Source: an uncultured Alistipes sp.
GTDB lineage: Bacteria; Bacteroidota; Bacteroidia; Bacteroidales; Rikenellaceae
Length of the DNA stretch: 64,000 bases
Direction of reading: 5' to 3'
NCBI GenBank assembly: GCA_900770635.1
Contig: CAAGLB010000078.1
Coordinates: forward strand, 59,857-123,856
Below, one piece after another: positions 26,967 to 63,551 of the stretch. The notes under the pieces are model-generated. The model was not told the DNA's origin, did no database searches, and was given only the letters and a program-made list of their open reading frames with translations. The translations under genes and the position numbers were made by a program. Each line of letters opens with the position of its first letter. Position 1 is the stretch's first letter.

Positions 26967-27097
26967 AATTTGTTGTTAGAAGGGGTTAGATTTGGCTTAT
27001 CGCAAAAGTGAGCACCCGAGGATAGTACACTTAGTACAGCCTCGGGTGCTCAACTTTTAGCGATGGGCCGAAGATGACCCCTTATCACAACAAATTA
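26967..27097 (+). mobile_element. MITE-like element, copy 1 (subfamily A core)
   Basis: TIR AATTTGTTGTTAGAAGG ... CCTTATCACAACAAATT, TA on both flanks. Internal hairpin GAGCACCCGAGG..CCTCGGGTGCTC then CAACTTTT. Terminal TTA equals the lpxA stop codon. Preceded by a related fragment at 26871-26966. Confidence 0.65.
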
Positions 27098-27880
27098 TCG
27101 TCGGGATTGATACTGCTTGATAACACCTCGCTTCGAGCCACGTATAAACTCAATGAGCTTGTTGCGCTCAGGAGTCTCGGGGATCTCGGCCTCGGCCTTG
27201 TCGCAGCCAGAGAGATAGCTGAGGTCGCTCTGGAACAAAACACGGCAAGTGTTGTGGATAGACTCGATCTGCTCGGGGGTGAAGCCTCGGCGTGAAAGAC
27301 CTACCTTGTTGATACCCGCATAGTGAGCCTCGCCATTTGTAACGATGATGAATGGAGGAACATCCTGTGTGAGGAGCGCACCACCCTGAATCATGGCATG
27401 GTCGCCAACATGAATCCACTGGTGGATGGCTGTATGGCCACCGATGACAACCCAGTCGCCAATCTCAACCTCGCCAGCAAGCGACACACGGTTGGCGATA
27501 ACGCAGTGGCTACCAACAACATCGTCGTGGGCAACATGGACATAGGCCATAAGCAAGTTGTGGTCGCCAACAACAGTAGTGCCACGTGAGGCTGTACCAC
27601 GTGAGATGGTCACACACTCACGAATATCGTTATAGTCGCCAATAACGGCAGTAGTCTGCTCGCCAGCAAACTTCAAATCCTGGGGCAAACATGCGATACA
27701 TGCTCCAGGGTGCACCTTATTGCCCTTGCCCAGACGTGCGCCATTATAGATGATGGCATGAGGGCCAATCCAGCAATCGTCGCCAATGACCACATCGCCC
27801 TCGACATAGGCAAATGGCTCTATTGTAACGTTCTTGCCGATCTTTGCATCGGGGTGAACGTATGCTAAGTTACTAATCAT
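27095..27880 (-). CDS. lpxA: Acyl-ACP:UDP-GlcNAc O-acyltransferase
   Basis: 261 aa left-handed beta-helix with hexapeptide repeats, N-terminus MISNLAYVHPDAKIGKNVTIEPFAYV. Confidence 0.85.
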   Translation of the reverse strand: MISNLAYVHPDAKIGKNVTIEPFAYVEGDVVIGDDCWIGPHAIIYNGARLGKGNKVHPGACIACLPQDLKFAGEQTTAVIGDYNDIRECVTISRGTASRGTTVVGDHNLLMAYVHVAHDDVVGSHCVIANRVSLAGEVEIGDWVVIGGHTAIHQWIHVGDHAMIQGGALLTQDVPPFIIVTNGEAHYAGINKVGLSRRGFTPEQIESIHNTCRVLFQSDLSYLSGCDKAEAEIPETPERNKLIEFIRGSKRGVIKQYQSRR

Positions 27881-27918
27881 ATATAAAAATTGTTTGTGTC
27901 CTAAGTGTTGTGATACTA

Positions 27919-29304
27919 CTATCTATTCTTCACGATTTGCGCTGTGAGCACCGCCTCGCAAACAAGCTGACCACCAACAAATGCCTTGCACTCTGCTGTG
28001 CAGATGCCACGACGGAAGTCGCCAATATGGCACTCGAGCTGCAAGGTGTCGCCAGGCACCACCTTACGTTTCCACTTTACGCCATCGGCTTTAAGGAAGT
28101 AGGTAGAGTAGCTTGCAGGATCCTCAACGCCATTGAGCACCAAGATGCCGCAGCACTGAGCCATAGCCTCGATGATAAGCACACCAGGCATCACAGGCTC
28201 CTCGGGGAAGTGGCCCACGAAGAAGGGCTCGTTCATTGATACCTGCTTGATACCGCCGATATCGTTCTTGTCGATGTGGAACACACGATCAACCAACAAG
28301 AATGGAGGACGGTGAGGCAGAAGCTTCTTAATCTGGTTGATGTCCAACAGTGGCTGCTCCTTAGCGCTATACTTAAACATTGGGCGGTCGCCGCTACGAC
28401 GAATCTGGCGGCTGAGGTCCTTCATAAACTCGGTGTTGGCAAAGTGACCAGGACGTGTAGCCCACACACGGCCCTTGATGCGCATGCCAAGAAGTGCAAA
28501 GTCGCCGAGAAGGTCGAGGAGCTTGTGGCGTGCAAACTCATTGTTGGCACGCAGCTGCTGGTTGTTCAGATAGCCACCTGTGATGTGGATATCCTCCTTG
28601 CCAAAGATTTTTTTGAGGTGCTCGAGCTGCTCGTCGGATACAGGATTCTCGACAACGACGATAGCATTATCGAGGTCGCCACCCTTGATGAGGTTCATCT
28701 TCATCAATGGCTCAAGCTCGTGCAAGAATACGAAGGTTCGACACATCGAAATCTTCTCGGCGTAGTTGTCCGTAGGGTTGTAAACGGCATACTGGTTGCC
28801 GACAACCTTTGAGTTGTAGTCTACGTGTACCGATACCGAGAACTCGTCATCGGGATAGAGGACGATGGCCACACCCTTCTCTGGGAGGGTATATACCTGC
28901 TTCTCGGTTACCTCGTAGTATTTACGCTCTGCCGACTGCTCAACGGTGCCCACCTCTAATATTCGCTGAGCATACTCACGTGCCGAGCCATCCATGATTG
29001 GGGTTTCGGGAGCGTTGATATCTACAACTGCGTTATCCACATCCAAAGTCCAGAGTGCAGACATTATATGTTCGATGGTGCTAACCTTAGCCTCACCCTT
29101 CTCTATTGTTGTGCCACGTGACGTGTCGGTTACATAATCACACAATGCGGGAACCTCGGGGCATCCCTCCAAATCTACACGACGAAAGACGATACCTGTA
29201 TTATCTTCTGCGGGATTAACCGTCATCTTAACCTGCAAACCTGTATGCAAGCCCTTACCCTCAAATGAAATTGGCTGGGCAAGTGTACGTTGTTTAATAG
29301 CCAT
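27919..29304 (-). CDS. lpxC: Bifunctional UDP-3-O-acyl-GlcNAc deacetylase / 3-hydroxyacyl-ACP dehydratase (LpxC-FabZ fusion)
   Basis: The N-terminal 300 aa resemble LpxC, followed by a FabZ hot-dog domain (GHFPEEPVMPGVLIIEAMAQ). Start trimmed to MAIKQRTLAQ (ATG 29302-29304). This fusion is typical of Bacteroidetes. Confidence 0.85.
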   Translation of the reverse strand: MAIKQRTLAQPISFEGKGLHTGLQVKMTVNPAEDNTGIVFRRVDLEGCPEVPALCDYVTDTSRGTTIEKGEAKVSTIEHIMSALWTLDVDNAVVDINAPETPIMDGSAREYAQRILEVGTVEQSAERKYYEVTEKQVYTLPEKGVAIVLYPDDEFSVSVHVDYNSKVVGNQYAVYNPTDNYAEKISMCRTFVFLHELEPLMKMNLIKGGDLDNAIVVVENPVSDEQLEHLKKIFGKEDIHITGGYLNNQQLRANNEFARHKLLDLLGDFALLGMRIKGRVWATRPGHFANTEFMKDLSRQIRRSGDRPMFKYSAKEQPLLDINQIKKLLPHRPPFLLVDRVFHIDKNDIGGIKQVSMNEPFFVGHFPEEPVMPGVLIIEAMAQCCGILVLNGVEDPASYSTYFLKADGVKWKRKVVPGDTLQLECHIGDFRRGICTAECKAFVGGQLVCEAVLTAQIVKNR

Positions 29305-29388
29305 ACTAATAATTTTTTGGTATATCGTTGCAAAGATATAAATTTTCTCAAAAAAAATTACTATTTTTGCTCGGAATATTATCATAAG

Positions 29389-30222
29389 ATGGATAAGAAT
29401 AGTAACAAATCTCAGATAAATATGGGCTCTCGGCTATCAACCGAGCATCGTCGCTACGCACGTATCGACCTGGGCAACACACGCAAGGAGAGCATCGGCG
29501 AGTGGCTATTCAACCATCGTGTAGGTCTGCTCGTAGTTTTTGCCGTGTTCGTACTCTCGGGAACGGTGCTCGCCACAGCGAGCTACCATGTTGAGCGCAC
29601 CGACATCGAATATATCATAGAGATTGTGCCCGAGGAGATGGTCAAGGAGGAGGCTCCAGAAACCCAGCCTACTGACTTAGCCGAGGAGCTATACCAGCGC
29701 ATGGAGAATGTGCGTAACACGATATCGAACGACGCTGCACAGCACGAAGCATCATCGGGAAGTTCGGACATTGACAAGGAGATAGAGCAGATACTCAACG
29801 ATGCTATGCAAGGCGCTGACTCGCAATCATCTATTGACAAGGGTGCAACATCGGTTGCGGGCGAAGGCGAGAGCGGCACGGGTGGTGGCAACGACAAGGG
29901 CGACTCGAAAAGCGAGAACGACAAGGCGGGCAAGTATCATGGTACATGCACTGTGAACTACTGCTTCACCGATCCTGTGCGCAACCACAAAAGCCTATAT
30001 ATCCCCGCCTACACAGCACGTGGTGGCGGCGTTGTGGTGCTCGACGTAACACTCGACCGCAATGGGGCAGTCACCAATGCACGAGTGGCATCGTCGACAA
30101 ATTCGAGCCTCAACCAGATAGCAATACAGGCTGCACGCAACTATAAGACACGATTCAACATCGATGGCTCGGCACCTGCATCGCACAAGGGCACGATAAC
30201 ATATACGTTTGTAGCACAGTGA
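29389..30222 (+). CDS. TonB-family energy-transducer-like protein (N-terminal TM anchor, acidic linker, TonB-C-like domain)
   Basis: TM LLVVFAVFVLSGTVLATA. D/E/S-rich linker. The C-terminal 90 aa (GGGVVVLDVTLDRNGAVTNARVASSTNSSLNQIAIQAARNYK..F) fit the TonB C-terminal fold. TATTTTTG -7 motif at 29362-29369. Confidence 0.55.
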   Translation: MDKNSNKSQINMGSRLSTEHRRYARIDLGNTRKESIGEWLFNHRVGLLVVFAVFVLSGTVLATASYHVERTDIEYIIEIVPEEMVKEEAPETQPTDLAEELYQRMENVRNTISNDAAQHEASSGSSDIDKEIEQILNDAMQGADSQSSIDKGATSVAGEGESGTGGGNDKGDSKSENDKAGKYHGTCTVNYCFTDPVRNHKSLYIPAYTARGGGVVVLDVTLDRNGAVTNARVASSTNSSLNQIAIQAARNYKTRFNIDGSAPASHKGTITYTFVAQ

Positions 30223-30690
30223 TAAATAGGCATATAACATCTTTTCGCACCCTCATTCTTACGGTTGTGATGCTGCTTAGTTTTAGCGTTAAGCTATCTG
30301 CAACATCGCAGTTAAAGTTTGAGGCAAACAGCTACACCCCTACCACTCACACCGAAGATAAGACAACACCCAAATTTGAGCTTAGGACACCCTGTTCGGC
30401 ACTAAGCCTAAGTTCGGAGAGCTCGCAAGGCATATCGCCCATTGTGCGCACCCTGCCACGAACACTGCGCACAACATACCGCATAGTACATAACAGCGCT
30501 GCGATACGCTCGATAGACTCGACGACCGCAGCCCACAGATATGGATTGTATAACCATAAAATATTGTTCTACGCTCATCCTCGCCACTACTACCTTAATG
30601 GCCTGATGAGGCTTATTATTTAGCCGCTGAAAGTAGATAAGCCCTACTTCTAAATAACTAATATTAAGCTAAATACAGAACAAAAAAATT

Positions 30691-31194
30691 ATGAATACAG
30701 ATAATATCTGCAAGGCATTGTATGCCTTGCCTGGAGGTGTTGTTACATCTCGCCGCCAATCGTTGACTACCCCAATCATGATTGCCGTAGTTGGCATCGC
30801 TCTTTTGGTTATTAACTACGCTATGCTCAGCGAAGCTCCCGAGAGCTTGTCGATGCTGATGCTAACCGTTGGCATTGGACTGCTGCTCTATGGCTCACTC
30901 GTCGTTGTTATGCGCCAGATAAGCCCCAAGCAGGTGCCATACGACAACCGCTCGCATAGCTACTTTAAGTACAAAGAGCGCTACTTCGAACGTGAGCTTG
31001 TAGCACCACTACAGCAGGCATTGGGACGTGGCGACACGGCAGCCATCGACGAGATGCCAACAACAAACATTGCAGCAATAACCCTCGTGGAGTATCGCTC
31101 GAAGAGTGGCATCAGAGCATACTGCCTCTACGAATATGGCGAGAGCGAGTATCGGCCACTCGGCAAACCAACAATATTGGGCTACGAGGCGTAA
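30691..31194 (+). CDS. Hypothetical membrane protein
   Basis: 167 aa with two predicted TM helices. No recognisable family. Confidence 0.4.
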   Translation: MNTDNICKALYALPGGVVTSRRQSLTTPIMIAVVGIALLVINYAMLSEAPESLSMLMLTVGIGLLLYGSLVVVMRQISPKQVPYDNRSHSYFKYKERYFERELVAPLQQALGRGDTAAIDEMPTTNIAAITLVEYRSKSGIRAYCLYEYGESEYRPLGKPTILGYEA

Positions 31195-31238
31195 CATATT
31201 GTAAACAACGTAATTAAAAACCGAAAACATAATATACT

Positions 31239-32747
31239 ATGAACGACGGAGGCATACTTTTCAACCAAGAGAACTTCTTACTCGTAGGAGCTATGTTGCT
31301 CTTTGTAGCTGTGCTCGCTGGCAAGGCAGCATATAGGCTCGGAGCACCCGCCCTGCTGCTATTCTTGGGTGTAGGAATGTTGTTTGGCTACAACGATTTT
31401 GTGGCTTTCGACTCTGCAATGTTTGCCCAGTTCATAGGCATGATAGCGATGTGTATCATTCTCTTCACAGGAGGTATGGACACACAGTTTTCGGAGATCA
31501 AACCCGTCATGGCACCCGGCATAGCTATGGCTACGGTGGGTGTCATGCTTACGGCAGCCTTGGTGGGATGTTTCATCTACTTCTTAGCACCACACTTAGG
31601 CGTCGAGCTAAGCCTCAGCGTGGCGTTGCTCATAGCAGCGACAATGTCGTCAACCGACTCAGCATCAGTATTTTCGATACTACGTTCGAAGAAACAAGGA
31701 TTGCAAGAGAACCTACGTCCGCTGCTCGAGCTCGAGAGCGGTAGTAACGATCCTATGGCCTACATCCTGACCATCGTTCTTGTGGGCATAGTGTCGGATG
31801 GCAGCTCGGTAGATTGGTTGGAGGCGGTGCGAACATTCATCGTGCAGATGTTGGTGGGTGCGGGCCTTGGCTATGGCTTTGGACGCATCACGGTATGGAT
31901 CATGAACCGCATTAACATACGCAACATACCATCGCTCTACTCGGTGTTGCTGCTTGCCTGCGCCTTCTTCTCGTTCTCGTTCACTACGTTGGTATATGGC
32001 AACGGCTACTTAGCGGTCTACATCACAGGCCTTGTTGTGGGCAACTACCGCATAACATACCGCAATATGCTCGGTACGTTCTTCGACAGTTTCACATGGC
32101 TGCTGCAAATAGTACTCTTCCTACTCCTCGGACTATATGTCAATGTACACGAGCTTCTCGAGCCCGAGGTACTGTTCATGGGCCTTGGCGTCGGTCTGTT
32201 CATGATATTTGTGGCACGCCCCATCGCCTCGTGGACAACACTTATCCCATTTAGCAACTTCTCGGGTAAGGCTCGCTCATATATCTCGTGGGTGGGACTA
32301 CGTGGCGCTGTGCCCATCATCTTCGCCCTATACCCCATCACTCGTGGTGTGGAGAATGCCGACTACATCTTCAATGTGGTGTTCCTCGTGACAATAATCT
32401 CGCTCGTGGTGCAGGGCACAACGGTAAGTTCTATGGCCAACTGGCTGGGCCTCAGCTACGAGGAGCCAGAGTCTACGTTTAAGCTCACCGTGCCCGACCA
32501 TATTCGCAGCGAGTTCTCGGAGATTGGCGTTACTGCCTCGATGCTCCATCGTGGCGACACGCTCAAGGATATTCAGCTGCCAGGACACACGCTCGTAGTC
32601 ATGGTGTGCCGTGATAACAAGTACTTCGTGCCTAAGGGCTACACTCAGCTCAAGTCGGGCGATAAGCTTCTTGTGGTGTCGGACGACAACGAGGAGCTAC
32701 TCAAGAAGGTTGATGCTTTGGGCATTAAGCACGTTGTGAAGGTGTGA
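31239..32747 (+). CDS. K+/H+ (cation:proton) antiporter, CPA1 family, with C-terminal TrkA-C/RCK domain
   Basis: 502 aa. About 12 TM helices plus a soluble C-terminal domain (GDTLKDIQLPGHTLVVMVCRDNKYFVP..GDKLLVVSDD). Confidence 0.8.
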   Translation: MNDGGILFNQENFLLVGAMLLFVAVLAGKAAYRLGAPALLLFLGVGMLFGYNDFVAFDSAMFAQFIGMIAMCIILFTGGMDTQFSEIKPVMAPGIAMATVGVMLTAALVGCFIYFLAPHLGVELSLSVALLIAATMSSTDSASVFSILRSKKQGLQENLRPLLELESGSNDPMAYILTIVLVGIVSDGSSVDWLEAVRTFIVQMLVGAGLGYGFGRITVWIMNRINIRNIPSLYSVLLLACAFFSFSFTTLVYGNGYLAVYITGLVVGNYRITYRNMLGTFFDSFTWLLQIVLFLLLGLYVNVHELLEPEVLFMGLGVGLFMIFVARPIASWTTLIPFSNFSGKARSYISWVGLRGAVPIIFALYPITRGVENADYIFNVVFLVTIISLVVQGTTVSSMANWLGLSYEEPESTFKLTVPDHIRSEFSEIGVTASMLHRGDTLKDIQLPGHTLVVMVCRDNKYFVPKGYTQLKSGDKLLVVSDDNEELLKKVDALGIKHVVKV

Positions 32748-32748
32748 T

Positions 32749-32820
32749 GAGGTAAGATGGGTAAGATGAGTTTCGATGAGTTAATATGCGACGCATAGTA
32801 ACCCATATTAACACATTAGC
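32749..32820 (+). repeat. TACCCAT/GGGTAA-rich companion repeat, copy 1
   Basis: GGTAAGATGGGTAAGATGAGTTTCGATGAGTTAATATGCGACGCATAGTAACCCATATTAAC. Homologous to 54525-54650 and to the reverse-sense 48890-48990. Confidence 0.5.
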
Positions 32821-32852
32821 TCCTGACATACTGCTCGGAATCTAACAAGGGT

Positions 32853-32982
32853 AAATTTGTTGTTAGAAGGGTGCAGATGTGGCCTTGACATGAAAAAGCC
32901 CCAGATGGGCTGTACTAAAACGTACTGCCCATTTGGAGCTTTGATTGAAGGGCCGCAGATGCGCCCTTATCACAACAAATTA
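32853..32982 (+). mobile_element. MITE-like element, copy 2 (subfamily B core)
   Basis: Same TIRs, TA flanks. Internal hairpin ATGGGCTGTAC..GTACTGCCCAT followed by TTTGG. Terminal TTA equals the argR stop. Confidence 0.65.
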
Positions 32983-33444: not shown

Positions 33445-33712
33445 ACCTTCCCACGATAGATTTTCTCATCAACGCAACATGCGTCATCAAAATTACATTA
33501 ACAGCGTACAAATTTAATATTTTTTTACGAATTTAGCAATCCACACAACATTTTTTTATCAACGGCCCTAAGTTTTATCACGGTCTGTTTAGTTTATTGC
33601 GGATAAATCATTATCTTTGCACCGACTTGCATAGCAAGCATAGTGTAAAACAGCAATAAATAACACTAAGAAAAGACTAAATTATTAATAACCAATAACT
33701 ATTTAACAGACC

Positions 33713-34966: not shown

Positions 34967-34985
34967 TTTAATTTGACAAAAAACG

Positions 34986-36365: not shown

Positions 36366-36387
36366 TAAAAATACCAAAAGTTTCAAG

Positions 36388-36424: not shown

Positions 36425-36449
36425 ATAGGTTTATCCCTATCTTTGCACT

Positions 36450-39246: not shown

Positions 39247-39290
39247 CGCCTAAAAATTTAGCGAAAATTTAGCACCTAGATTAGCGCACT

Positions 39291-39420
39291 AATTTCTTGT
39301 TAGAAGGCATTAGATACAACGCTCGGCGAAATTGGTGTCGATGGGCTGTACTTGAGCGTACTGCCCATTGACAACATATTTCGTTAGCGGCAGTAGATGA
39401 TGCCTTATCACAATAAATTA
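39291..39420 (+). mobile_element. MITE-like element, copy 3
   Basis: TIR variants AATTTCTTGTTAGAAGG ... CCTTATCACAATAAATT, TA flanks. Internal GGGCTGTAC..GTACTGCCC hairpin. Terminal TTA equals the buk stop. Confidence 0.6.
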
Positions 39421-48809: not shown

Positions 48810-48889
48810 ATAAGGGACTGCATAGTAGCTGGTTTATATCGTATGTCATTCTGAACGTAGTGAAGAATCTCTCAGCCGGAGAGAGTAGG

Positions 48890-48990
48890 TATCATGGGTA
48901 GAGTGGGGATGATGGGTAAAATAGGTAACGAAACTACCTATAGTACCCTATATACCCACTAATACCCATATTACACCCTGCAAGATGTTT
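48890..48990. repeat. TACCCAT/GGGTA-rich companion repeat, copy 2 (mixed orientation)
   Basis: ATGGGTAGAGTGGGGATGATGGGTAAAATAGGTAAC followed by TAGTACCCTATATACCCACTAATACCCATATTACACCC. Confidence 0.45.
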
Positions 48991-49037: not shown

Positions 49038-49230
49038 AATTTTTGATTAGAAGGTAGTAGATACAACGCTCGACAAAAATCCCGACGATGGGCTGTACTC
49101 TAATTTTTGATTAGAAGTGTGCCGAGTGCTACACTCGGCAAAAATGGTGACGATAGGTAGTACTGAAGTACGTCCCATTGTCACCATTTTTTGTTAGGGG
49201 CCGCAATCGACCACTTATCATCAAAAATTA
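49038..49230 (+). mobile_element. MITE-like element, copy 4 (composite/variant TIR)
   Basis: Variant left end AATTTTTGATTAGAAGG, repeated internally at 49101-49117. Right end CCACTTATCATCAAAAATT. TA flanks. Internal hairpins GAGTGCTACACTCGGC and GTACT..AGTAC. Terminal TTA equals the stop of the XRE/S24 repressor gene. Confidence 0.55.
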
Positions 49231-49908
49231 CCCAATGGTGTGCATGCGGACAGAGGCTTTAATTAAAGCTATGGCACGTATGCGGCTGATCTCAACCTCC
49301 TTGTCAGCATGATGCTGATTCTGGCTTACGAGCTTGACATAGCCTTCGTGCTCGGACTTCTGAACATACTTAACAGTGATATACTCCTCGCCATCAATCT
49401 CGATGGAGAGAAGATACATGTCGCCCCAAAAGACATCACGAACATCGCTAAGCTGCTTATACAGAATAATATCGCCACTCTTGAGCAGCGGATACATCGA
49501 GTCGCCCTGAACATATATCGCACCATCGCACTTTGGCAAGTTAGGGATGTGGATGAAGTTGGCAGGGGTAATCTCGCTCTTAGCATCGAATATCGGCACA
49601 AGGCCCGCAGTACCCTCAATCGAGTAGAGAGGCACGCTCTGCAACGGCAGCGACTTGTCGGTGCGGTGGATGTAGGCCGTCATATCGGGCTCGGCGTTAA
49701 ACATCTTTCCCTCACCCGAATCCAACCAATCTGGGTTAATGTTCAAGTCTTGAACAAGGATGTTTTTGTTTCGCTGCGACAACCCAGCCTTACCTGTTTC
49801 GATCATCGAGAGTGCAGCCTTGCCAATGCCAAGTCGCTGAGCGAGTTGATCTTGAGTCATATTCAACTGCTTTCGCATAAGTCGAACACGCATTCCGACA
49901 GTTTCCAT
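49228..49908 (-). CDS. XRE-family HTH / S24 peptidase (CI/LexA-like self-cleaving) repressor
   Basis: N-terminal HTH_XRE (LMRKQLNMTQDQLAQRLGIGKAALSMIETGK). C-terminal S24 domain with Ser motif GDSMYP and Lys in ILYKQ. Confidence 0.8.
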   Translation of the reverse strand: METVGMRVRLMRKQLNMTQDQLAQRLGIGKAALSMIETGKAGLSQRNKNILVQDLNINPDWLDSGEGKMFNAEPDMTAYIHRTDKSLPLQSVPLYSIEGTAGLVPIFDAKSEITPANFIHIPNLPKCDGAIYVQGDSMYPLLKSGDIILYKQLSDVRDVFWGDMYLLSIEIDGEEYITVKYVQKSEHEGYVKLVSQNQHHADKEVEISRIRAIALIKASVRMHTIG

Positions 49909-50043
49909 ATAAAAAGATTTGATATTAAATTTTTGTACTAAACTATTGACAAATCAAGTTATTGAACGTATATTTGTACCACAAAGTTAAGCAATTTATT
50001 TTAAATTCCAATAATTTTATAACAAATTTACAAATAATCAACA

Positions 50044-50334
50044 ATGTACGAAGTTTCTCATCAACTATATCTTGAAGTATGGCAAAGATTGATGGACGAG
50101 ATTGCAGGTCGTGAGTTCTTTGCTGGAAACGTAAGCGTGGTGGCGGGCAACGTAGACTGCAAGCTCACATGCACGCTCATCGTGGGCTACGACCAACTAA
50201 ACGACGCAGGGTGCTCGGGAAGCATAGCATCGAAGATTACGCCCGTATGGTGGGAGTTTCACACCACCGAGGGCAACGAGGAGATGATCAACGACTTCTC
50301 GTTTCGAGAGATGTGCCAAGCAGCAGCCATCTAG
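50044..50334 (+). CDS. Hypothetical 96-aa protein, divergent from the repressor and upstream of the terminase-like gene
   Basis: ORF with good coding look. No recognisable domain. Confidence 0.4.
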   Translation: MYEVSHQLYLEVWQRLMDEIAGREFFAGNVSVVAGNVDCKLTCTLIVGYDQLNDAGCSGSIASKITPVWWEFHTTEGNEEMINDFSFREMCQAAAI

Positions 50335-50450
50335 CCCACCATCTTAAAAGGAGTTTGGCCCGTTCCCACCCCAAAGCGATGCCTTAGCCAAACTATAACA
50401 TGGTGCCACACCGTCAGCATCGTGACGTGCACCACTAAACCCTACATCCA

Positions 50451-51881
50451 ATGAACAATTTAGAACATTTAGGTGCGGAGTTCAGCTTCACGGACTTCGC
50501 ACTAAGGGTATATCCCTTTCTTGAACTTAGCGAGTTTCATCGCACCTACTACCGAATACTGGAGGCATACGCACATGGGCGAATACGCAAGCTCATAGTT
50601 TCTGTGCCACCACAACATGGCAAGAGCGTGGGGGCTACAACCCTACTGCCTGCCTACATGCTTGGCCTCAACCCCGACATGCGCATAGCTATAGCCTCGT
50701 ACTCGGGAACATTAGCCTCGAAATTTAACCGCCGTGTACAGCGAATAATAGAGTCGAGGGAGTATGCCGAGATATTTCCCGACACAACCATCAAGCAGGG
50801 CACAAAGCCACTGGGATACATACGCACCTCGGACGAGGTGGAGATTGTCGGCCACAAGGGCGAGCTGCTGTCGGTAGGCCGTGAAGGCTCGCTCACGGGC
50901 AACCGTGTAGACTGCTTCATTCTCGACGACCTATACAAAGATGCTATGGAGGCGCAGTCGCCTGTGGTGAGAGAGAACTGCTGGGAGTGGTACACCTCGG
51001 TGGTGCGCACACGCATGCACAACACCTCACGTGAGCTTATAGTCTTCACACGCTGGCACGAGGAGGACCTCATAGGCAAGCTTATGGAGACAGAGCGTGT
51101 GCGGCCACTAACATCGTTCGCCGACATTGACAAGGTGGAGGATGACGAGTGGCTATACCTCAACTTCGAGGCTTTGAAGTCGTCGCCCGCAACCGAGATA
51201 GACCCACGCAGCGAGGGCGAGGCGCTATGGCCCGAGCAACACAGCAAGCAGCTGCTAATGACCAAACGTAGGCTCGATCCCCAGCGCTTCGAGGCGATGT
51301 ATCAGGGACACCCTGCCTCGCACGAGGGGCTGCTCTATGGCAACAACTTTCAGGTGTACGATACCCTGCCGCACGACATAATCAAGCGTAGCTGCTACAC
51401 CGACACAGCAGACACGGGCGAGGACTACCTATGCTCGGTAGCCTACTCGGTAGATACCGATGGCGTGATATACCTTAGCGATGTGGTATATACACAAGAG
51501 CCCATGGAGATTAGCGAGAAGCTCGTTGCGGCGATGCTCGTCATGAACGACACACGCATAGCATACGTCGAGAGCAACAATGGCGGTCGAGGCTTTGCCC
51601 GTGCCTTACAGCGTCAAGTACCAAACACCAAGGTAGAGTGGTTTCATCAGAGTGGCAACAAGGAGGCACGCATATTGTCGAACTCGGCAACGGTGCTCCA
51701 CACCCTACGCATGCCTAAGGGGTGGCATCTGTTGTGGCCCGAGTTCTACGCCCACCTGACCACCTTCAAACGACTCATCAGGGCCAACACCCACGACGAT
51801 GCTGCCGACGCCATAACGGGCATTATAGAACGTGAGGTGGGTAGCACAAAGCCAAGATGGCAGAGGGCAAAGTTCTTGTAA
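50451..51881 (+). CDS. Phage terminase large-subunit (TerL) homolog, apparently intact and orphan
   Basis: 476 aa. ATPase Walker A PPQHGKS, Walker B CFILDDLY, coupling motif FTRWHEEDL. C-terminal RNaseH-like nuclease region with acidic residues (TDTADTGEDY.., YVESNNGGRG). Confidence 0.7.
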   Translation: MNNLEHLGAEFSFTDFALRVYPFLELSEFHRTYYRILEAYAHGRIRKLIVSVPPQHGKSVGATTLLPAYMLGLNPDMRIAIASYSGTLASKFNRRVQRIIESREYAEIFPDTTIKQGTKPLGYIRTSDEVEIVGHKGELLSVGREGSLTGNRVDCFILDDLYKDAMEAQSPVVRENCWEWYTSVVRTRMHNTSRELIVFTRWHEEDLIGKLMETERVRPLTSFADIDKVEDDEWLYLNFEALKSSPATEIDPRSEGEALWPEQHSKQLLMTKRRLDPQRFEAMYQGHPASHEGLLYGNNFQVYDTLPHDIIKRSCYTDTADTGEDYLCSVAYSVDTDGVIYLSDVVYTQEPMEISEKLVAAMLVMNDTRIAYVESNNGGRGFARALQRQVPNTKVEWFHQSGNKEARILSNSATVLHTLRMPKGWHLLWPEFYAHLTTFKRLIRANTHDDAADAITGIIEREVGSTKPRWQRAKFL

Positions 51882-54423: not shown

Positions 54424-54524
54424 AGTATTTAGGTTAAAATATTATCTTAGAATACAAAGATACAAAAAAAAGTGAAAAGGACAAACAAAAAGTGCAGCGA
54501 GCTAAGCAGAGGGAGTTAGTGAGG

Positions 54525-54650
54525 GGAGAGTGGGCATCTATGGGTAATATGAGTTTCTATGAGATAATATGCGTGTGCATAGTAACACCGTAGTAACCCT
54601 TCTTAACCCATAATACCCATACTACCCATAGATACCCATCATAGTTTCTT
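54525..54650 (+). repeat. TACCCAT/GGGTA-rich companion repeat, copy 3
   Basis: GGGTAATATGAGTTTCTATGAGATAATATGCGTGTGCATAGTAACACCGTAGTAACCC..ATACCCATACTACCCATAGATACCCATCATAG. Confidence 0.5.
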
Positions 54651-54665
54651 GCCTCAGCGCACAGC

Positions 54666-54796
54666 ATTTGTTGTTAGAAGGGGTTAGATTTGGCTTATCG
54701 CAAAAGTGAGCACCCGAGGATAGTACTCAAACGTACAGCCTCGGGTGCTCAGCTTTTTGGGATAGGTCAAAGATGACCCCTTATCACAACAAATTA
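54666..54796 (+). mobile_element. MITE-like element, copy 5 (subfamily A, near-identical to copy 1)
   Basis: ATTTGTTGTTAGAAGG..GGTTAGATTTGGCTTATCGCAAAAGTGAGCACCCGAGG..CCTCGGGTGCTCAGCTTTTTGG..CCTTATCACAACAAATT. Terminal TTA equals the proS stop. Confidence 0.65.
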
Positions 54797-56793: not shown

Positions 56794-58176
56794 ATGGTGA
56801 AATCAAATTACATCATCGAGCTTAAGAACATCACCAAGACATTCCCCGACAAGGTGGTTCTCGACGATGTCAGTTTGTCAGTAAAGAAGGGTGAGTTTCT
56901 AACAATCCTCGGCCCTTCGGGTTGTGGCAAGACCACACTACTGCGTCTTTTGGCGGGCTTCAACAGCGCCACAAAGGGTGAAATCAAGATTGGCGGCGAG
57001 GTAATGACCGACGTACCTCCACACTTGCGTCCTGTGAACACCGTATTCCAGCGCTACGCCCTATTTCCAAACTACAATGTCTACGATAATATCGCCTTTG
57101 GCTTAAAGCTCCAGAAGGTCGACAAGAAGGAGATCGAGCAGCGTGTACACCGTGCCCTCAAGATGGTGGGCATGACCGACTACGAGCATCGTGACGTGCA
57201 GTCATTGTCGGGTGGTCAGCAGCAGCGTGTGGCCATAGCACGAGCTATCGTCAACCGCCCACAGGTGTTGCTCCTCGACGAGCCACTTGCAGCGCTCGAC
57301 CTCAAGATGCGCAAGGATATGCAGATGGAGCTCAAGGAGATGCACCGCTCACTCGGCATCACATTCGTATACGTGACGCACGACCAGGAGGAGGCATTGA
57401 CACTCTCCGACACCATCGTTGTTATGAACGAGGGTAAGATTCAGCAGATTGGCTCGCCTACCGACATTTACAACGAGCCATGCAACGCCTTTGTTGCCGA
57501 CTTCATCGGCGAGAGCAACATCCTCAACGCCACAATGGTGCGTGATCGCCTTGTACGATTCATGGGCAAGGAGTTCGAGTGTATCGACGAGGGCTTTGGC
57601 GAGAATGTCGAGGTTGACGTTGTTGTACGCCCCGAGGACGTATATATCATTCGCAACGCCGAGGCAGCAATGTTTCATGGCAAGGTGCGCTCATGCATCT
57701 TCAAGGGCGTTCACTACGAGATGTTTGTCGAGACGCCTGATGGCTACGAGATAATGATTCAGGACTACAACTGCTTCGAGGTGGGCAGCGAGGTGGGCAT
57801 GATGATCAAGCCCGCCGACATCCACGTCATGCATAAGGAGCGCACCGAAAACCATGTCGAGGGTAAGATGCTCGACTCGACACATGTCGAGATTCTTGGC
57901 GAGAGCTTCGAGTGCTTGGCACACGAGGGCATCGTGGCAGGCGACGAGGTGGACGTAGCCTTCGACTTCGACGCTGTGGAGCTCACCGACGACTCGGAAG
58001 ATGGAACATCGTGGGGTACAATACGTTTCATCCTATATAAGGGTGACCGCTACCACCTCACAGTGCGCACCGACGAGAACGAGAATGTCTATGTCGACAC
58101 CCACGACGTGTGGGAGGATCTCGACGAGGTGGGTATTAAGATTGCGCCTGAGGCACTGCGCCTTACCAAGAAGTAA
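56794..58176 (+). CDS. potA: Spermidine/putrescine ABC transporter ATP-binding protein
   Basis: Walker [10 protein letters not shown], signature LSGGQQQR, Walker B LLLDEP. TOBE-like C-terminal region with an extra roughly 90-aa extension. Confidence 0.85.
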
Positions 58177-58207
58177 TATTGCTAACCATTAAGCTTATTC
58201 TTACAGA

Positions 58208-59002
58208 ATGAATAGTGTGGTAAAATACTTTTCACGACGACGCACATGGAGCATTCCCTATGTGATATTCCTTGCGATATTTGTTGTGTTGCCGCTTATT
58301 CTTATCATGGTCTATGCCTTTCAGTCGAAGAGTGGAGAGTTTTCGTTGGAGAACTTCGAGCGCTTTATCAACCAGCCCGAAGCTGCCAACACCTTCATCT
58401 ACTCGATAGGCATTGCCCTGATAACCACCATTATATGCATCATCTTGGGCTACCCTGCAGCCTACATCCTCTCACGCCTGCGTGTGTCAACAGCACGCAT
58501 CGTGGTGATGCTCTTTATCCTTCCCATGTGGATCAACGTGCTTGTGCGCACGCTCGCAACAGTCGCCCTGTTCGACTTCTTGCGCTTGCCACTTGGCGAG
58601 GGAGCATTGATCTTCGGCATGGTCTACAACTTCTTGCCGTTCATGGTCTACCCCATCTACAACGTGATGCAGAAGATGGACCACTCGCTTATTGAGGCGG
58701 CTGAGGACTTGGGAGCAACGCCACGTCAGGTCTTCACACGTGTGGTATTCCCACTCTCGATACCTGGTGTGGTGAGCGGCATCATGATGGTGTTCATGCC
58801 AACAATCTCGACCTTCGCCATCTCGGAGCTCTTGACAATGAACAACATCAAGCTATTTGGTACTACCATTCAGGAGAATATCAACAACGGCATGTGGCAC
58901 TATGGTGCAGCGCTCTCGCTCATCATGCTTATAATTATAGGTATCACTTCGCTCTTCACCGACTCGCAGTCGGAGAGTGGCGCTAACGAGGGACTACTAT
59001 AA
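58208..59002 (+). CDS. potB: Spermidine/putrescine ABC permease
   Basis: 264 aa, 6 TM helices, EAA-like loop (IEAAEDLGATPRQ). Confidence 0.8.
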   Translation: MNSVVKYFSRRRTWSIPYVIFLAIFVVLPLILIMVYAFQSKSGEFSLENFERFINQPEAANTFIYSIGIALITTIICIILGYPAAYILSRLRVSTARIVVMLFILPMWINVLVRTLATVALFDFLRLPLGEGALIFGMVYNFLPFMVYPIYNVMQKMDHSLIEAAEDLGATPRQVFTRVVFPLSIPGVVSGIMMVFMPTISTFAISELLTMNNIKLFGTTIQENINNGMWHYGAALSLIMLIIIGITSLFTDSQSESGANEGLL

Positions 59003-59826
59003 TGAGGAAGTTTCTATCATGCAGCTACTTGGTCGTATTGCTCGTAATGCTCTACGCACCAATCATCATCATCGCCATCTTCTCGTTCACCGAGTCGAAG
59101 GTGCTGGGCAACTGGACAGGCTTCTCTACCGAGCTATACACCTCGCTCTTTACGGGTGGCGTGCGCTACTCGTTGGTCGATGCCCTGAAAAACACCTTTA
59201 TCATCGCCCTCACCGCAGCCGTAGTGTCGACAATATTGGGCACTGTGGCAGCCATCGGCATCAACGACCTACGCTATGGCAAGCGCCGTGCTATCAACTT
59301 CGTGAACAACATACCTATCCTCAACCCCGATATCATCACAGGTATCTCGTTGTTCTTGTTGTTCGTGTCGTTGGGCGTTACGCAGGGCTACACTACGGTT
59401 ATCCTTGCCCATATCGCCTTCTGCACGCCCTACGTCGTTCTTAGCGTCATGCCACGCCTCACGCAGATGAATCCCAACATCTACGAGGCAGCTCTCGACC
59501 TTGGTGCTACACCTATGCAGGCTATGCGCCGAGTGATCATCCCCGAGATTCGTCCAGGCATGATTTCTGGCTTTATCCTCGCCTTCACGCTCTCTATTGA
59601 CGACTTTGCGGTGACCATCTTCACGAACGGTACTGACGGCTTGCAGACCTTGTCGACATACATTTATGCCGATGCTCGCAAGGGAGGTCTTACGCCCGAG
59701 CTACGTGCCTTGTCGACAATTATTCTTGTTGTGGTTGTAGTGTTGCTCATCGTGGTAAACTATCGTGCCAGCCGCCAGGCAAAGCGTGCCGAGGAGCAGC
59801 AGAAGCAGCTTAAAATCAAAAAATAG
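59002..59826 (+). CDS. potC: Spermidine/putrescine ABC permease
   Basis: 274 aa, 6 TM helices, EAA loop (YEAALDLGATPMQ). Start overlaps the potB stop. Confidence 0.8.
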   Translation: MRKFLSCSYLVVLLVMLYAPIIIIAIFSFTESKVLGNWTGFSTELYTSLFTGGVRYSLVDALKNTFIIALTAAVVSTILGTVAAIGINDLRYGKRRAINFVNNIPILNPDIITGISLFLLFVSLGVTQGYTTVILAHIAFCTPYVVLSVMPRLTQMNPNIYEAALDLGATPMQAMRRVIIPEIRPGMISGFILAFTLSIDDFAVTIFTNGTDGLQTLSTYIYADARKGGLTPELRALSTIILVVVVVLLIVVNYRASRQAKRAEEQQKQLKIKK

Positions 59827-59835
59827 CAAAGGCCT

Positions 59836-61266
59836 ATGCAGAGATATATCTACAATATTGCAACCTTAGTAGCAACCCTTGCTGCTATTGTGTTGGTGGG
59901 CTGCGGCATTAGCGACGAGCGTGCCCACACCCTCAAGGTATACAACTGGGGTGACTATATCGACGAGAACCTCATTGCCGAGTTCGAGGAGTGGTACGAG
60001 GAGCAGACAGGCGAGCCTGTGTCGATTATCTACCAGACCTTCGACATCAACGAGGTTATGCTCGCAAAGATCGAGAATGGCCATGCCGACTTCGACGTGG
60101 TGTGCCCTTCGGAGTATATCATCGAGCGTATGATGCGAGGCGACATGCTTCAGCCTATCCTCACACCAGAATTTGAGGCGGAGATTAACGACAAAAACAT
60201 CAACTACTTCGACTGCGTATCGCCATATATCAAGGAGCAGTTCTCGCTGTTGGAGGCCCCCGAGGGCAAAGATCCTAACGACTACTCGGTGGGTTATATG
60301 TGGGGTACTACGGGTATCTTGTACAACGAGAAGTATGTCACCGAGGAGGAGGCTATGTCGTGGAGCTTGATGTTCGACAAGAGGCTTCAGGATAAGATCT
60401 TCGTCAAGGATGCCTTTCGTGATGTCTACTCTCCTATCTTGGTATATGCCAAGACCTTGGAGAAGCGAGCAAGTGGAGAACTTGGCGAAAATGAGATGCT
60501 CGACATCGAGACCATACGTGAGCTAATGTACGACTCGTCGGACGAGTCTATCGCCTTGGTCGAGAGTTACCTTAAGCGCATGAAGGAGCTTGTAGCGGGC
60601 TGGGAGGCCGACTTCGGCAAGGAGATGATGACGCAGGAGAAGGCGTGGATCAACCTCATGTGGAGTGGCGATGCCGTATGGGCTATTGAGGAGGCTACTG
60701 AGGTGGGCGTTGAGTTGGCATATACCGTTCCTAAGGAGGGCAGCGTGGTGTGGTTCGACGGCTGGGTGATACCTAAGTATGCCGTAAACACACGTGCTGC
60801 ACGCTACTTCATCAACTTTATGTGTAAGCCCGAAAATGCCATTCGCAATATGGACGCTACGGGATATGTGAGCGTTGTCACCACCGAGGAGGTCATGGAT
60901 TATATGTCGAGCGAAGAGGACTACGACGAGGCTATCGACCTAAGCTACTTGTTTGTACATGCCGATGGCACACCTATCGAGGGTGCTGACAGTGTGTTTA
61001 CCGATCCAGTGTTGTACCCATGTCGCTCGGTTATAGACCGTTGCGCCGTTATGCACGACTCGGGCGACCGCACCGACAAGATGCTCGAGATGTGGTCACG
61101 TGTCAAGGGCGACAACCTATCAACAGGCATGCTCGTGGGCATCATCTTATTCTTCTCGGCAATGCTCATCTGGGGCATCGCACGCAAGATAGCTGCCTAT
61201 CGCAAGCACCGCAAGCACATGAAGCGTCGCCACAAATATGCCAAAGAGGCAAACAACAAAAAATAA
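59836..61266 (+). CDS. potD: Spermidine/putrescine-binding lipoprotein with an extra C-terminal TM helix and basic tail
   Basis: Lipobox LVGCG. PotD/PotF-type periplasmic binding fold. C-terminal MLVGIILFFSAMLIWGIA then RKIAAYRKHRKHMKRRHKYAKEANNKK. Confidence 0.75.
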   Translation: MQRYIYNIATLVATLAAIVLVGCGISDERAHTLKVYNWGDYIDENLIAEFEEWYEEQTGEPVSIIYQTFDINEVMLAKIENGHADFDVVCPSEYIIERMMRGDMLQPILTPEFEAEINDKNINYFDCVSPYIKEQFSLLEAPEGKDPNDYSVGYMWGTTGILYNEKYVTEEEAMSWSLMFDKRLQDKIFVKDAFRDVYSPILVYAKTLEKRASGELGENEMLDIETIRELMYDSSDESIALVESYLKRMKELVAGWEADFGKEMMTQEKAWINLMWSGDAVWAIEEATEVGVELAYTVPKEGSVVWFDGWVIPKYAVNTRAARYFINFMCKPENAIRNMDATGYVSVVTTEEVMDYMSSEEDYDEAIDLSYLFVHADGTPIEGADSVFTDPVLYPCRSVIDRCAVMHDSGDRTDKMLEMWSRVKGDNLSTGMLVGIILFFSAMLIWGIARKIAAYRKHRKHMKRRHKYAKEANNKK

Positions 61267-61296
61267 ACTATTTATAAACTATAAAACCTATTAAAG

Positions 61297-62157
61297 ATGA
61301 CAAGAAAGGTATTTTCCCTCCTTGCCACCCTTGCGCTCTCGGTATCGGCGCAGGCAACAACATTTACTCCAACAGACGATTTTGAGCCCACAGCACAGCT
61401 CGCCCCACAGCCAGCATCGGATAGCGATGACGACAAGTGGGAGTTTTGGTGGGAGGGAGGCTTCGACCTCGCATCAAACTATATGTGGCGTGGCTACGAC
61501 CAGTCGTACACAGGTAACCTCTTTGATCCATCGTTCCAGCCATCACTAACACTTGGCTATGGCAAGTTCTACATCAACCTATGGGGTAATGCCTCGCTAT
61601 TGAGCGACTATAAGGAGTTTGACATGTTCCTCGGCTTCGACCACGAGAATCTATCAGTTACCATCTACGATGTGTTCTGTGGCGTAGGCCCCGACTTTGG
61701 CAACAGCAGCTTCTTTGATGGCGAGAAGCACAACCTCACAGCAACCGTCGACTATACCCTCTTCGACTGCTTGCGCCTACACTGGGCAACGACCTTCCTC
61801 CACGCCTCCGACTGGCACTACAACGAGGATGGCTCACGCAACCGCCGTGCCTTCTCGTCATACTTTGAGTTGGCTTATAGCCACACTTTTGGCGACATTG
61901 TCGAGATGGAGGTTATCGCTGGTGCAGCACCCTGGACAGGTCCTTTCTGGATGGCAGGTCCTCGAGTTATGGTTGATGGCGCTTACACCCTCGACTTCGA
62001 CAACCAGCCACAGGGCTTCAACGTCACTAACCTAAGCCTCGCTCTACGTCGCAACTTCGAGCTTAGCAACATCACAATCCCTGTTGAGTTGGGCTACACC
62101 TTCAACCCTACCACCAAGCGCCACTACGGATTGCTCAAAGCGGGATTTGCGTTCTAA
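61297..62157 (+). CDS. Outer-membrane beta-barrel protein, function unknown
   Basis: Signal peptide (ALSVSAQA). Alternating amphipathic strands. C-terminal aromatic residue (..GFAF*). Confidence 0.5.
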   Translation: MTRKVFSLLATLALSVSAQATTFTPTDDFEPTAQLAPQPASDSDDDKWEFWWEGGFDLASNYMWRGYDQSYTGNLFDPSFQPSLTLGYGKFYINLWGNASLLSDYKEFDMFLGFDHENLSVTIYDVFCGVGPDFGNSSFFDGEKHNLTATVDYTLFDCLRLHWATTFLHASDWHYNEDGSRNRRAFSSYFELAYSHTFGDIVEMEVIAGAAPWTGPFWMAGPRVMVDGAYTLDFDNQPQGFNVTNLSLALRRNFELSNITIPVELGYTFNPTTKRHYGLLKAGFAF

Positions 62158-62188
62158 CAGAGTAGAAAACACATTAATCAGCACACAC

Positions 62189-62318
62189 ATTTCTTGTCAG
62201 AAGTTGTGCTATGTGACATATCGCAAAAGGGAGCACCCGAGGATAGTAGTAGACCTACAGCCTCGGGTGCTCAACTTTTCGGGATGTGCCGCAGAGTGCA
62301 GCTTATCACAAGAAATTA
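62189..62318 (+). mobile_element. MITE-like element, copy 6 (subfamily A, diverged ends)
   Basis: ATTTCTTGTCAGAAG ... GCTTATCACAAGAAATT with the conserved GAGCACCCGAGG..CCTCGGGTGCTCAACTTTT core. Terminal TTA equals the stop of the MFS transporter gene. Confidence 0.6.
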
Positions 62319-63551
62319 TCTCAACTTATGTTGGTGAAAATGCGGTGTGACAACATACTTGAAGAAGATGAGCGCCAAGACGATAAGTCCTGCACCAATC
62401 ATATAGCAATAGGAATAATCGAACTCCGAGATATAGCCACCCAACAACATACCGCCACCGATGCCCACGTCCCAGCCAGTGAGGTATGTGGCATTTGCAG
62501 TAGCACGACGTGAGTTGGGAGCGAGGTTGATAAATAGCGTGTTATAGGCAGGGAACATCGTGCCATAGCCATAGCCAAACAAGAAGGCTGTGAGGAAGTA
62601 GCAGACATATCCCGCTGCGATGCTCCACGACGACACCGTAGAGAGTATCGCCTCGCCAAAGCCACCAACAAGGGCGATACATATTCCCACCAATATCGTT
62701 TCGGTGACAAATCCCCTATCTACACGCTTGCCCGAGTGCAGTCGTGAGGTGATGAGTCCCGCAGCCATAACCGTGAAGAACAGGCCTGCATTGTGCGTTA
62801 TGCCCGATTGCTCAGCATAGAGTGCCATGTAGCTGGTGGTCATACCATAAGGCATGGCCAAAAGGAAGAAGGCAAAGCATGCACGAACACCCTCTTTAAG
62901 GAAAAATCTATCTGCCGAAAGCTTAAACTCCGTTTTCTCGAGTTGCTTACGTGGCGCACGCACCAAAGCACCCAGCGTCAAGCCTACTATACCTGTAACA
63001 AGCGATGTAAGGAACAATAGCGTATAGTTGCCTGACGACACAACGAACAGACCTACCATAGGGCCAAAAGCCATAGCGAGGTTGTTCGTAACGCCATAAT
63101 AGCCAAGGCCTTCGCCACGTCGTGATGAAGGCATAACGTCGATAACAAGCGTATTACCCGCAGTTGTAAGCATGCCGAACGAGAAGCCATGAAATACACG
63201 CAACAGGATAAATAGAGCCAAGGTCTGCGTTATAAAGAAGTAGCCGAGGAATGAGGCCACAAATATTGCATAGGCAGTGATATATACCTGCTTACGTGGC
63301 AACGTGTCGGCGATGAATCCCGTCATAGGGCGTATCGACAACACTGCAATGACGTAGCACGACAGCACCACGCCCACCAACGCAGGGCTAATACCAAAGG
63401 TATCTTTGAGATACATCGGCAGCGTGGGCACAAGGATAAAGAACGAGAACGACATCATAAATGCTGCAATGCAAACAAATATGTAGTCACGAGTAAATAG
63501 CCTATCTTGCTTAGTGTCAGACATATCGCACAATAAATTAATCGTTATCAC
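62316..63551 (-). CDS. MFS transporter
   Basis: 411 aa, 12 TM helices. Confidence 0.75.
   Translation of the reverse strand: MITINLLCDMSDTKQDRLFTRDYIFVCIAAFMMSFSFFILVPTLPMYLKDTFGISPALVGVVLSCYVIAVLSIRPMTGFIADTLPRKQVYITAYAIFVASFLGYFFITQTLALFILLRVFHGFSFGMLTTAGNTLVIDVMPSSRRGEGLGYYGVTNNLAMAFGPMVGLFVVSSGNYTLLFLTSLVTGIVGLTLGALVRAPRKQLEKTEFKLSADRFFLKEGVRACFAFFLLAMPYGMTTSYMALYAEQSGITHNAGLFFTVMAAGLITSRLHSGKRVDRGFVTETILVGICIALVGGFGEAILSTVSSWSIAAGYVCYFLTAFLFGYGYGTMFPAYNTLFINLAPNSRRATANATYLTGWDVGIGGGMLLGGYISEFDYSYCYMIGAGLIVLALIFFKYVVTPHFHQHKLR
63524..63540 (+). repeat. Solo right-end fragment of the MITE-like element
   Basis: TATCGCACAATAAATTA matches the element right terminus (TTATCACAA[C/T]AAATTA). 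Again its TTA is the stop codon of the adjacent minus-strand gene. Confidence 0.4.

Follow-up and report, generated by a model that had tools for sequence, protein, structure and literature searches.

Palindromic repeats abutting the stop codons of genes in Alistipes and related Rikenellaceae

The stretch of DNA considered here, 64,000 nucleotides (nt) from an uncultured Alistipes sp. of the Rikenellaceae (contig CAAGLB010000078.1, positions 59,857 to 123,856), is referred to as the window, and all positions are given in its own coordinates. At seven sites in the window a minus-strand gene ends exactly where a short palindromic repeat, or a piece of one, begins. A preliminary description, made from the sequence alone, had named these genes as lpxA, argR, buk, an XRE/S24 repressor gene, proS, an MFS transporter gene and a DUF2807 gene, and the names agree with the Pfam matches of the same genes in near-identical public contigs (LpxA, ArgR, acetate/butyrate kinase, HTH_3 with Peptidase_S24, ProRS, MFS and DUF2807). 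Repeat finding, alignment and searches with mismatches all recover the six copies and the end fragment at the places originally reported, and in a single orientation. The copy drawn at 49038-49230 is in fact composite, a half unit (49038-49100) next to a full unit (49101-49230), and 26869-26964 contains two further remnants. Besides the six full units, the complete inventory (Table 1) has an additional half unit, two remnants and an end fragment of 12-17 nt, all co-oriented. Sixteen-mers resembling the terminal inverted repeats (TIRs) of these units number 10-13 in the window, where about 0.5 would be expected by chance. Below, "gene orientation" is that of the upstream, minus-strand gene, and the proximal end of a unit is the one next to that gene.

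The precision of this placement is the central observation. Open reading frames (ORFs) of the minus strand end at 27095, 32980, 39418, 49228, 54794, 62316 and 63538, and in all seven cases these ends coincide with the last three bases of the copy or fragment, whose closing TTA on the plus strand is the TAA stop of the adjoining gene. TAA occurs in the window as a stop codon 33 times and between genes 345 times; if each non-coding TAA had the same chance of being occupied, all seven would fall on stops with a probability of about 4e-8. The original claim that the placement is far from random is borne out by this figure, and the association also holds across species. Mobility is suggested by c1 and c5, which lie behind unrelated genes and yet have a stretch of 61 identical bases in common.

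Table 1. Repeat units, their remnants and the associated tail sequences in the window.
Feature	Position	Strand	Remarks
Two older-unit remnants distal to c1	26869..26964	-	distal boundary common to all strains, proximal content differs
c1-distal remnant 2	26869-26921	-	piece of another distal half
c1-distal remnant 1	26922-26964	-	distal arm and distal TIR (CTGACGCTAAATT in gene orientation)
Unit c1	26967..27097	-	GAGCACCCGAGG core type; TAA stop of lpxA at 27095-27097
Short-repeat tract	32746-32816		similar to that at 54545..54643
Unit c2	32853..32982	-	ATGGGCTGTAC core type; TAA stop of argR at 32980-32982
Tail motif GTGCGCTAATCTAGGTGC (gene orientation)	39272..39289	-	directly behind the distal TIR of c3
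Unit c3	39291..39420	-	TAA stop of the butyrate/acetate kinase gene (buk) at 39418-39420
Short-repeat tract	48882-48957		similar to that at 54545..54643
Distal half of an older unit, displaced by c4	49038..49100	-	profile positions 64-125
Unit c4, full	49101..49230	-	covaried TIRs TTTTTGAT/ATCAAAAA; TAA stop of the XRE/S24 repressor gene at 49228-49230
Short tandem repeats of 9-10 nt (ACCCATAAT x4 and others)	54545..54643	.	palindromic, strain-variable tail distal to c5
Degenerate tail motif	54651-54665		behind c5
Unit c5	54666..54796	-	61-nt stretch identical to c1; TAA stop of proS at 54794-54796
Degenerate tail motif	62170-62188		behind c6
Unit c6	62189..62318	-	TAA stop of the MFS transporter gene at 62316-62318
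Proximal-TIR-only fragment (TAATTTATTGTG...)	63524..63540	-	lies in the 13 nt that separate the stop of the DUF2807 gene from the start codon of the MFS gene

Further copies were collected from other genomes, one per species, by scanning for an exact 15-mer of the gene-proximal TIR from which the stop triplet had deliberately been left out. A scan by one such 15-mer yields a sample biased toward one TIR type, and its counts are those among the matches listed; the data are metagenome-assembled genomes (MAGs), and gene calls outside the window rest on ORFs alone. Essentially all the true matches among those listed lay in gut MAGs, of animal and human origin, that bear the title Alistipes sp. or Rikenellaceae, and the rest were chance matches. 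The search with the TIR that had been proposed at the outset finds a family widespread in the MAGs of this lineage and abutting stops there as well; it does not define a target duplication and gave no clean pair of empty and filled sites. Proteins identical to those of the window were encountered on metagenome and MAG contigs, one of which, 133 kb long, appears to contain the window. A profile built from the collected copies gave 242 matches (in the collected loci, both strands counted) and 73 distinct full-length units. A scan of the window at the Rfam gathering thresholds returned three tRNAs only, and scans of two units by E-value gave only sub-threshold matches to miRNA-type hairpins. Phage and plasmid collections searched with a unit yielded no match, nor did IMG/VR when scanned with a two-TIR pattern. 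The family is best explained as a set of non-coding, non-autonomous palindromic repeats specific to the Alistipes/Rikenellaceae lineage, in keeping with the earlier view of a multi-copy, non-coding and evidently mobile or exchangeable repeat that can supply the stop of the upstream gene.

Each unit is about 125 bases long. The TIRs that had been recognized at its ends are real; what had been seen between them as a separate core hairpin belongs to a single long imperfect hairpin that takes in the whole unit. In gene orientation, it begins with a proximal TIR, (T)AA-TTTGTTGT-GAT-AAGG, continues through a variable paired arm of about 40 nt, an apex GTAC-N4-6-GTAC and the complementary arm, and closes with a distal TIR, CCTT-CTR-ACAACAAA-TT(A). 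The GTAC...GTAC apex is invariant, as is a 3x3 internal loop in which GAT stands opposite CTR and which distinguishes the two ends. The two sides of the outer stem change together from unit to unit (TTTAGCGT/ACGCTAAA, TTTTTGAT/ATCAAAAA, TTTCTTGT/ACAAGAAA), so that at least seven covarying TIR variants occur within one lineage. Two core types are present in the window, as reported before, and related strains add at least three more. In an alignment of 72 units compensatory (double) changes are found at 22 of the 30 consensus pairs, and 95.6% of the cells are paired; the covariation score is 0.409, against 0.150 in shuffled alignments (none of 500 reached 0.409) and about 0.06 when the partners were slid. 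A transposase that reads the sequence of the TIRs would not require such concerted change. The repeat family is defined by structure rather than by sequence.

The fold is also strongly strand-asymmetric, a feature that was absent from the preliminary description, as were the tandem arrays, the turnover between close strains and the linked tail motifs. The strand complementary to the mRNA of the adjoining gene folds better in 68 of the 73 units, with a mean energy of -64.3 kcal/mol compared with -50.1 kcal/mol for the mRNA strand (Wilcoxon p = 5e-13), and the antisense folds contain 349 G:U pairs where the mRNA-strand folds contain 38. Across subfamilies, several positions have a G:U pair in roughly half of the units and a C-G pair in the others; the two arms are therefore inherited separately, with their pairing maintained by selection on the antisense strand. 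In our judgement, a ninefold excess of G:U pairs seems too large to result from mutation bias alone. The selected fold is hence not that of the gene's own 3' untranslated region, and points instead to single-stranded DNA (ssDNA) of the template strand or to an antisense RNA.

The association with stop codons is polar as well as precise. Among the matches listed from the pattern scan, the proximal end of the unit had an offset of 0 from the stop of a long same-strand ORF in 23 cases and of +1 to +6 in 10, and the remaining 15 cases were mostly inner units of arrays; the distal end met an opposite-strand stop in 0-1 cases, though a TAA-like triplet is present there too. Only the GTGATAAGG end of the unit, in other words, abuts stops. 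A stop immediately precedes the unit in 41 of 57 distinct gene-adjacent contexts, and it is TAA at 24 of 25 filled sites as against 62% of the window genes that have no unit. A co-oriented gene ends 19-170 nt upstream of each of the few first units that are off stops, and several of these units directly follow the T-run of an intrinsic terminator. All eight arrays of the window's contig are on one strand; in other genomes, opposite orientations occur within 6 kb, each unit behind its own gene, and it is therefore the gene, and not the replichore, that sets the orientation of the unit. A hexamer target, TAATTT, was considered as the full explanation and rejected: three natural stops and 14 intergenic sites carry it, which lessens the surprise but explains neither the seven out of seven nor the polarity.

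The unit not only follows stops but can provide them. Its proximal TIR holds a TAA in one frame and TGA-TAA in a second, and the second-frame stop is in use on the window's own contig about 3 kb past the right end of the window, where a gene for an OmpR-type response regulator (L245:17396-17410) reads past the out-of-frame TAA as far as the TGA of GTGATAAGG and takes its three C-terminal residues, N-F-S, from the unit. In one MAG, at loci L022 and L043, two different genes are followed by a common composite that consists of a 26-nt head, a unit and a tail; the sequence they share sets in within the last codons and gives one gene a TAG stop, the other a TAA. Orthologues of ArgR share their last residue whether or not a unit follows the gene, which places the junction there exactly at the native stop.

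Comparison of strains revealed turnover at these sites. Strains with identical ArgR have one, two or three units behind argR, the first of them providing TAA or being of another core type with TAG. Behind lpxA the distal boundary is fixed and the sequence from there up to the stop is a third core type, a chimera without a distal TIR of its own, or a full unit plus remnant. The XRE site has 1, 1.5 or 2.5 units and the proS site one or two between strains whose flanking protein is identical; at buk another unit is joined to the gene in another way (TAA+AA), and the stretch replaced there takes in the tail motif. Across species of 76-100% identity, argR alleles with a unit and alleles without one form a patchwork. 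Both states are represented in 80 argR loci, but with wholly different intergenic regions, the empty sites having an ordinary short terminator; the other window proteins looked up for empty sites gave filled sites only. Where partial units remain, the distal pieces lie distal to intact units, and TIR-only or proximal-half pieces sit at stops, among them the proximal-end-only fragments of L035, L064, L092, L116 and the window (63524-63540). Two chimeric units, L130 and L142, have an exact proximal junction and a distal junction resolved by homology. With distal remnants displaced outward and proximal pieces at stops, we read this pattern as new material entering on the stop side, followed by unequal recombination and conversion between units.

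Two of these sites call for a separate remark. In other strains (L127, L128 and L133, positions 2340-2510) public annotation places a 56-residue "protein" without a Pfam match inside the unit-containing lpxA spacer; the repeat has probably given rise to a spurious gene call there. Next to the XRE/S24 repressor gene with unit c4 (region 49228-51881) are a 96-amino-acid ORF and a gene resembling the large terminase subunit (Pfam Terminase_6N), with YidC on the other side, and the neighbourhood is perhaps a prophage remnant.

Sequences beyond the distal end are in part linked to the units. An approximately 18-nt tail motif, GTGCGCTGATTGAGGTGG in gene orientation, follows the distal TIR in about one-third of the arrays (also in L040, L075, L117, L151, L153, L155 and L241). 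That it is an independent stop-abutting element was rejected, the motif being found only after the distal end of a unit and never alone at a stop. A second type of tail, TTAGCTTGCCCCGGGAATGCTCATTTACGC, is common to L022, L043 and L111. Given these linked tails, the mobile entity may be larger than the 125-bp unit. Past the last unit, many spacers (among them the tracts of the window, and those of L117, L088, L036, L075 and L153) hold long imperfect palindromes of tandem 8-10-nt repeats, in which G-rich repeats such as ATAGGGAA, TATGGGTA or AATTTAAGG make up one side and the complementary sequences the opposite side. Strains compared at one locus have entirely different repeats (at proS, the TATGGGTA type versus the ATAGGGAA/CGTCCTAAT type), and these tails fold strongly but without the antisense bias of the units.

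On balance, we lean towards the view that the family is a non-autonomous repeat which is recognized, as a folded single strand, by an enzyme encoded elsewhere and which is specialized for the 3' ends of genes. Selection would act on the structure of the strand complementary to the mRNA of the upstream gene, and that strand, as ssDNA or as an antisense transcript, would be recognized in its folded form by some structure-specific enzyme acting in trans. Units would be placed, replaced and stacked at the gene-proximal boundary, presumably proximal end first, and the terminal (T)AA of the unit would become or regenerate the TAA stop, while the second-frame TGA-TAA inside GTGATAAGG would catch insertions that are one base off, leaving the protein essentially unchanged. 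Older units would be pushed distally and truncated, and arrays would then grow, shrink and swap units via recombination between units. Several points weigh against this view. Sampling by one exact proximal-TIR 15-mer favours one TIR type, MAG assemblies may collapse or misjoin repeat arrays, and the differences between strains could in part be due to the exchange of entire intergenic regions between alleles. As no single site gave a clean pair of empty and filled states, there is no direct observation of an insertion event, of its exact boundary or of a duplication; nor was a candidate enzyme found in the material examined, whole genomes not having been scanned for one. The antisense bias could reflect the function of an antisense RNA and not a mobility intermediate. 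As a weaker objection, the GC skew of the window is weakly negative, which suggests that the folding strand is not the lagging-strand template and disfavours a mechanism of the IS608 type that uses ssDNA at the replication fork.

A more radical form of mobility, which we think improbable, is an element that homes with gene polarity to translation stops by reading the direction of gene expression and not a DNA motif. In one version, a hairpin-forming antisense RNA would be copied, proximal end first, onto a DNA 3' end in ...TAA; in another, integration would be tied to the point at which ribosome and RNA polymerase uncouple; in either, the multi-frame stop module would render the insertion harmless. 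The RNA-templated mechanism taken by itself, in which an antisense transcript with the 3' end ...ACAACAAAUUA pairs with the DNA 3' end ...TAA, strikes us as very unlikely. It would yield one exact junction and a variable or truncated distal end, and this fits the proximal-end-only fragments at stops, the L130 and L142 chimeras, the lack of a visible target duplication and the G:U-rich fold of an antisense strand whose 3' end is the stop-codon end. Against it, no reverse transcriptase was found nearby, the transcript and its promoter are without evidence, and nothing accounts for nicking of the DNA at stop codons; moreover, there are distal-only remnants too, and overwriting and deletion could account for the partial units. 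As to promoters, the Bacteroidetes -7 box TAnnTTTG fits the distal end of c1 and c2 (TAAATTTG) but that of no other copy.

The units might instead serve the host as RNA elements, 3'-end hairpins that act as bidirectional or antisense-blocking terminators or as mRNA stabilizers, are kept at the stop by selection and spread by recombination. We regard this as unlikely. In its favour, the core reads as A-tract, GC-rich hairpin and T-tract on both strands, the units stand at the 3' ends of co-oriented genes, four of the six in the window between convergent genes, lpxA has no terminator other than its unit, and selection on the folding of an antisense RNA would explain the G:U bias. The terminator-like character ascribed to the copies earlier survives, however, only weakly and in c2, the sole match on the gene strand in a test for a GC-rich stem-loop followed by at least five T in eight; the other cores have about four T, 2-3 nt away from the stem. 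The number and type of units vary between strains with identical flanking proteins, sister-species orthologues use ordinary short terminators, and stacks of two or three units, half units and TIR-only fragments are unlike a tuned regulatory element. Termination, finally, does not need the nucleotide-exact placement seen at 41 of 57 sites. The preliminary description had likened the flanks to Tc1/mariner/IS630-type target duplications; the corresponding origin would be a cut-and-paste MITE (miniature inverted-repeat transposable element) derived from an IS630/Tc1-mariner (or IS5-type) insertion sequence (IS), with duplication of a TA or TAA target and with off-stop insertions purged by selection. 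The size of the unit and its 16-nt TIRs agree with this, as does the strong over-representation of TAA at filled sites; many distal flanks start with TA(A/G), and tandem junctions often read ...AAAT-TAA-TTTG. But the TA on both flanks that had been reported for four of six copies is found in only two, c3 and c4, when one consistent boundary (ATTTN...NAAAT) is applied, and the flanks of the window copies, of 29 pattern matches among those listed and of 58 array ends contain no consistent direct repeat, the copies off stops being devoid of any duplication. Distal flanks start with TTA in about 29% of arrays and with TTT or TTG in most others, and TA or TAA at both ends is equally well explained as an extension of the paired termini. 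The TIRs covary, TAA-like triplets at both ends would not lead one end alone to abut stops, and 345 intergenic TAA triplets were on offer, yet all seven units are on stops. As to a source of transposase, the statement that the window contains none agrees with the Pfam matches for the genes of near-identical contigs covering most of it (Pfam was not run on the window ORFs themselves), and these lists include no parent IS; no pair of matching TIRs 0.4-4 kb apart was found in about 260 fetched loci, and the ORFs beside off-stop units resemble ordinary genes (by inspection of their sequence only, with no domain search). We hold such an origin to be improbable.

The attC sites of integrons are imperfect palindromes located directly 3' of ORFs; they are polar and defined by structure, have conserved unpaired bases, and recombine through the strand complementary to the mRNA. 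That the units are sites of this kind, folded as single strands and recombined by a tyrosine recombinase but attached here to chromosomal genes, is a reading to which we give very little credence. In both, an outer stem is followed by a conserved unpaired spacer, an inner stem and a variable top, and the length of about 125 bp, the polar position immediately 3' of ORFs, the conservation of structure while sequence varies, and the folding of the strand complementary to the mRNA also agree. The core motifs RYYYAAC...GTTRRRY are missing, however, the termini of the units reading (T)AATTTGTTGT ... ACAACAAATT(A), and there is no integrase in the Pfam lists of the window-equivalent contigs. Units lie behind housekeeping genes such as lpxA and proS and are stacked without intervening ORFs, and no logic of cassettes is apparent.

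REP and REPIN sequences, which are mobilized by RAYT transposases (IS200-like, Y1), are extragenic palindromes found mostly at gene 3' ends, with the ends most conserved and with compensatory changes in a long hairpin; they occur in clusters and tandem arrays, cause no target duplication and probably use a single-stranded intermediate. The units are similar in being clustered palindromic hairpins of 3' ends, most conserved at their termini, with compensatory changes and no duplication. They differ in being one 125-nt hairpin and in their polar, nucleotide-exact abutment of stops, and no RAYT was found here, whole genomes not having been scanned. Neither a GTAG nor a CGTC tag (the REP tag classes of PMC3733652), nor a short palindrome within each end, is present in the 72 aligned units. 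With bacterial MITEs (Correia/CREE, ERIC, RUP, SPRITE, BrickBuilt) they share a size of 100-150 bp, TIRs, the absence of coding capacity, multiple copies in one lineage and possible RNA hairpins, and they differ from them in having no regular target duplication, in their covarying TIRs and in a strongly strand-asymmetric fold. SPRITE is terminator-like (PMC10969869). BrickBuilt, from Porphyromonas gingivalis, is a MITE of the Bacteroidales with an internal minisatellite (PMC4596501) that resembles the short-repeat tails of the Alistipes units; it lies 49-591 nt from coding sequences (PMC4596501), whereas for the Alistipes units this distance is 0 nt. Stop codons are not mentioned at any point in a 2024 review of prokaryotic MITEs (PMC10969869). 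The closest precedent for codon-precise placement of a repeat is offered by MIRUs (mycobacterial interspersed repetitive units), which are codon-precise, in one orientation and variable in tandem number, and whose placement is thought to limit harm to the gene (PMC12548453). MIRUs, however, are situated at start codons, contain a small ORF for translational coupling and are not hairpins, whereas the Alistipes units are non-coding palindromes on stops. Literature searches for MITEs or repeats linked to stop codons in Bacteroidetes, Alistipes or Rikenellaceae turned up nothing of relevance, and we rate the family as a variant of the REP/REPIN/MITE kind not previously described in the literature searched.

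If the finding holds, a nucleotide-exact and orientation-specific placement at stops would constitute a new rule of targeting or selection, one not described for bacterial MITEs or REPs in the literature searched. The antisense bias of the fold would hint at a single-stranded intermediate or an antisense RNA, a hint open to testing because this gut genus is cultivable. Housekeeping genes would have 3' flanks that are hypervariable between strains, with consequences for MAG assembly, strain typing and the annotation of gene ends, as exemplified by the gene that ends inside a unit and by the "genes" called inside units in L127 and L128.

A separate repeat of 42-67 nt is present elsewhere in the window in three copies (6804-6874, 8607-8677 and 8811-8852; also 6928-6976/8409-8457) and comprises a hairpin, GAGGAAACCCTCTCGGATTTCCTC, followed by TATGGTAG. 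Its copies flank a sigma-70 family gene (Pfam Sigma70_r2/r4) and the 250-amino-acid neighbour of that gene, and the third runs into the 3' end of a tRNA gene (8850-8922, minus strand). The arrangement resembles duplicated attachment-site remnants of elements integrated at the 3' end of a tRNA gene.

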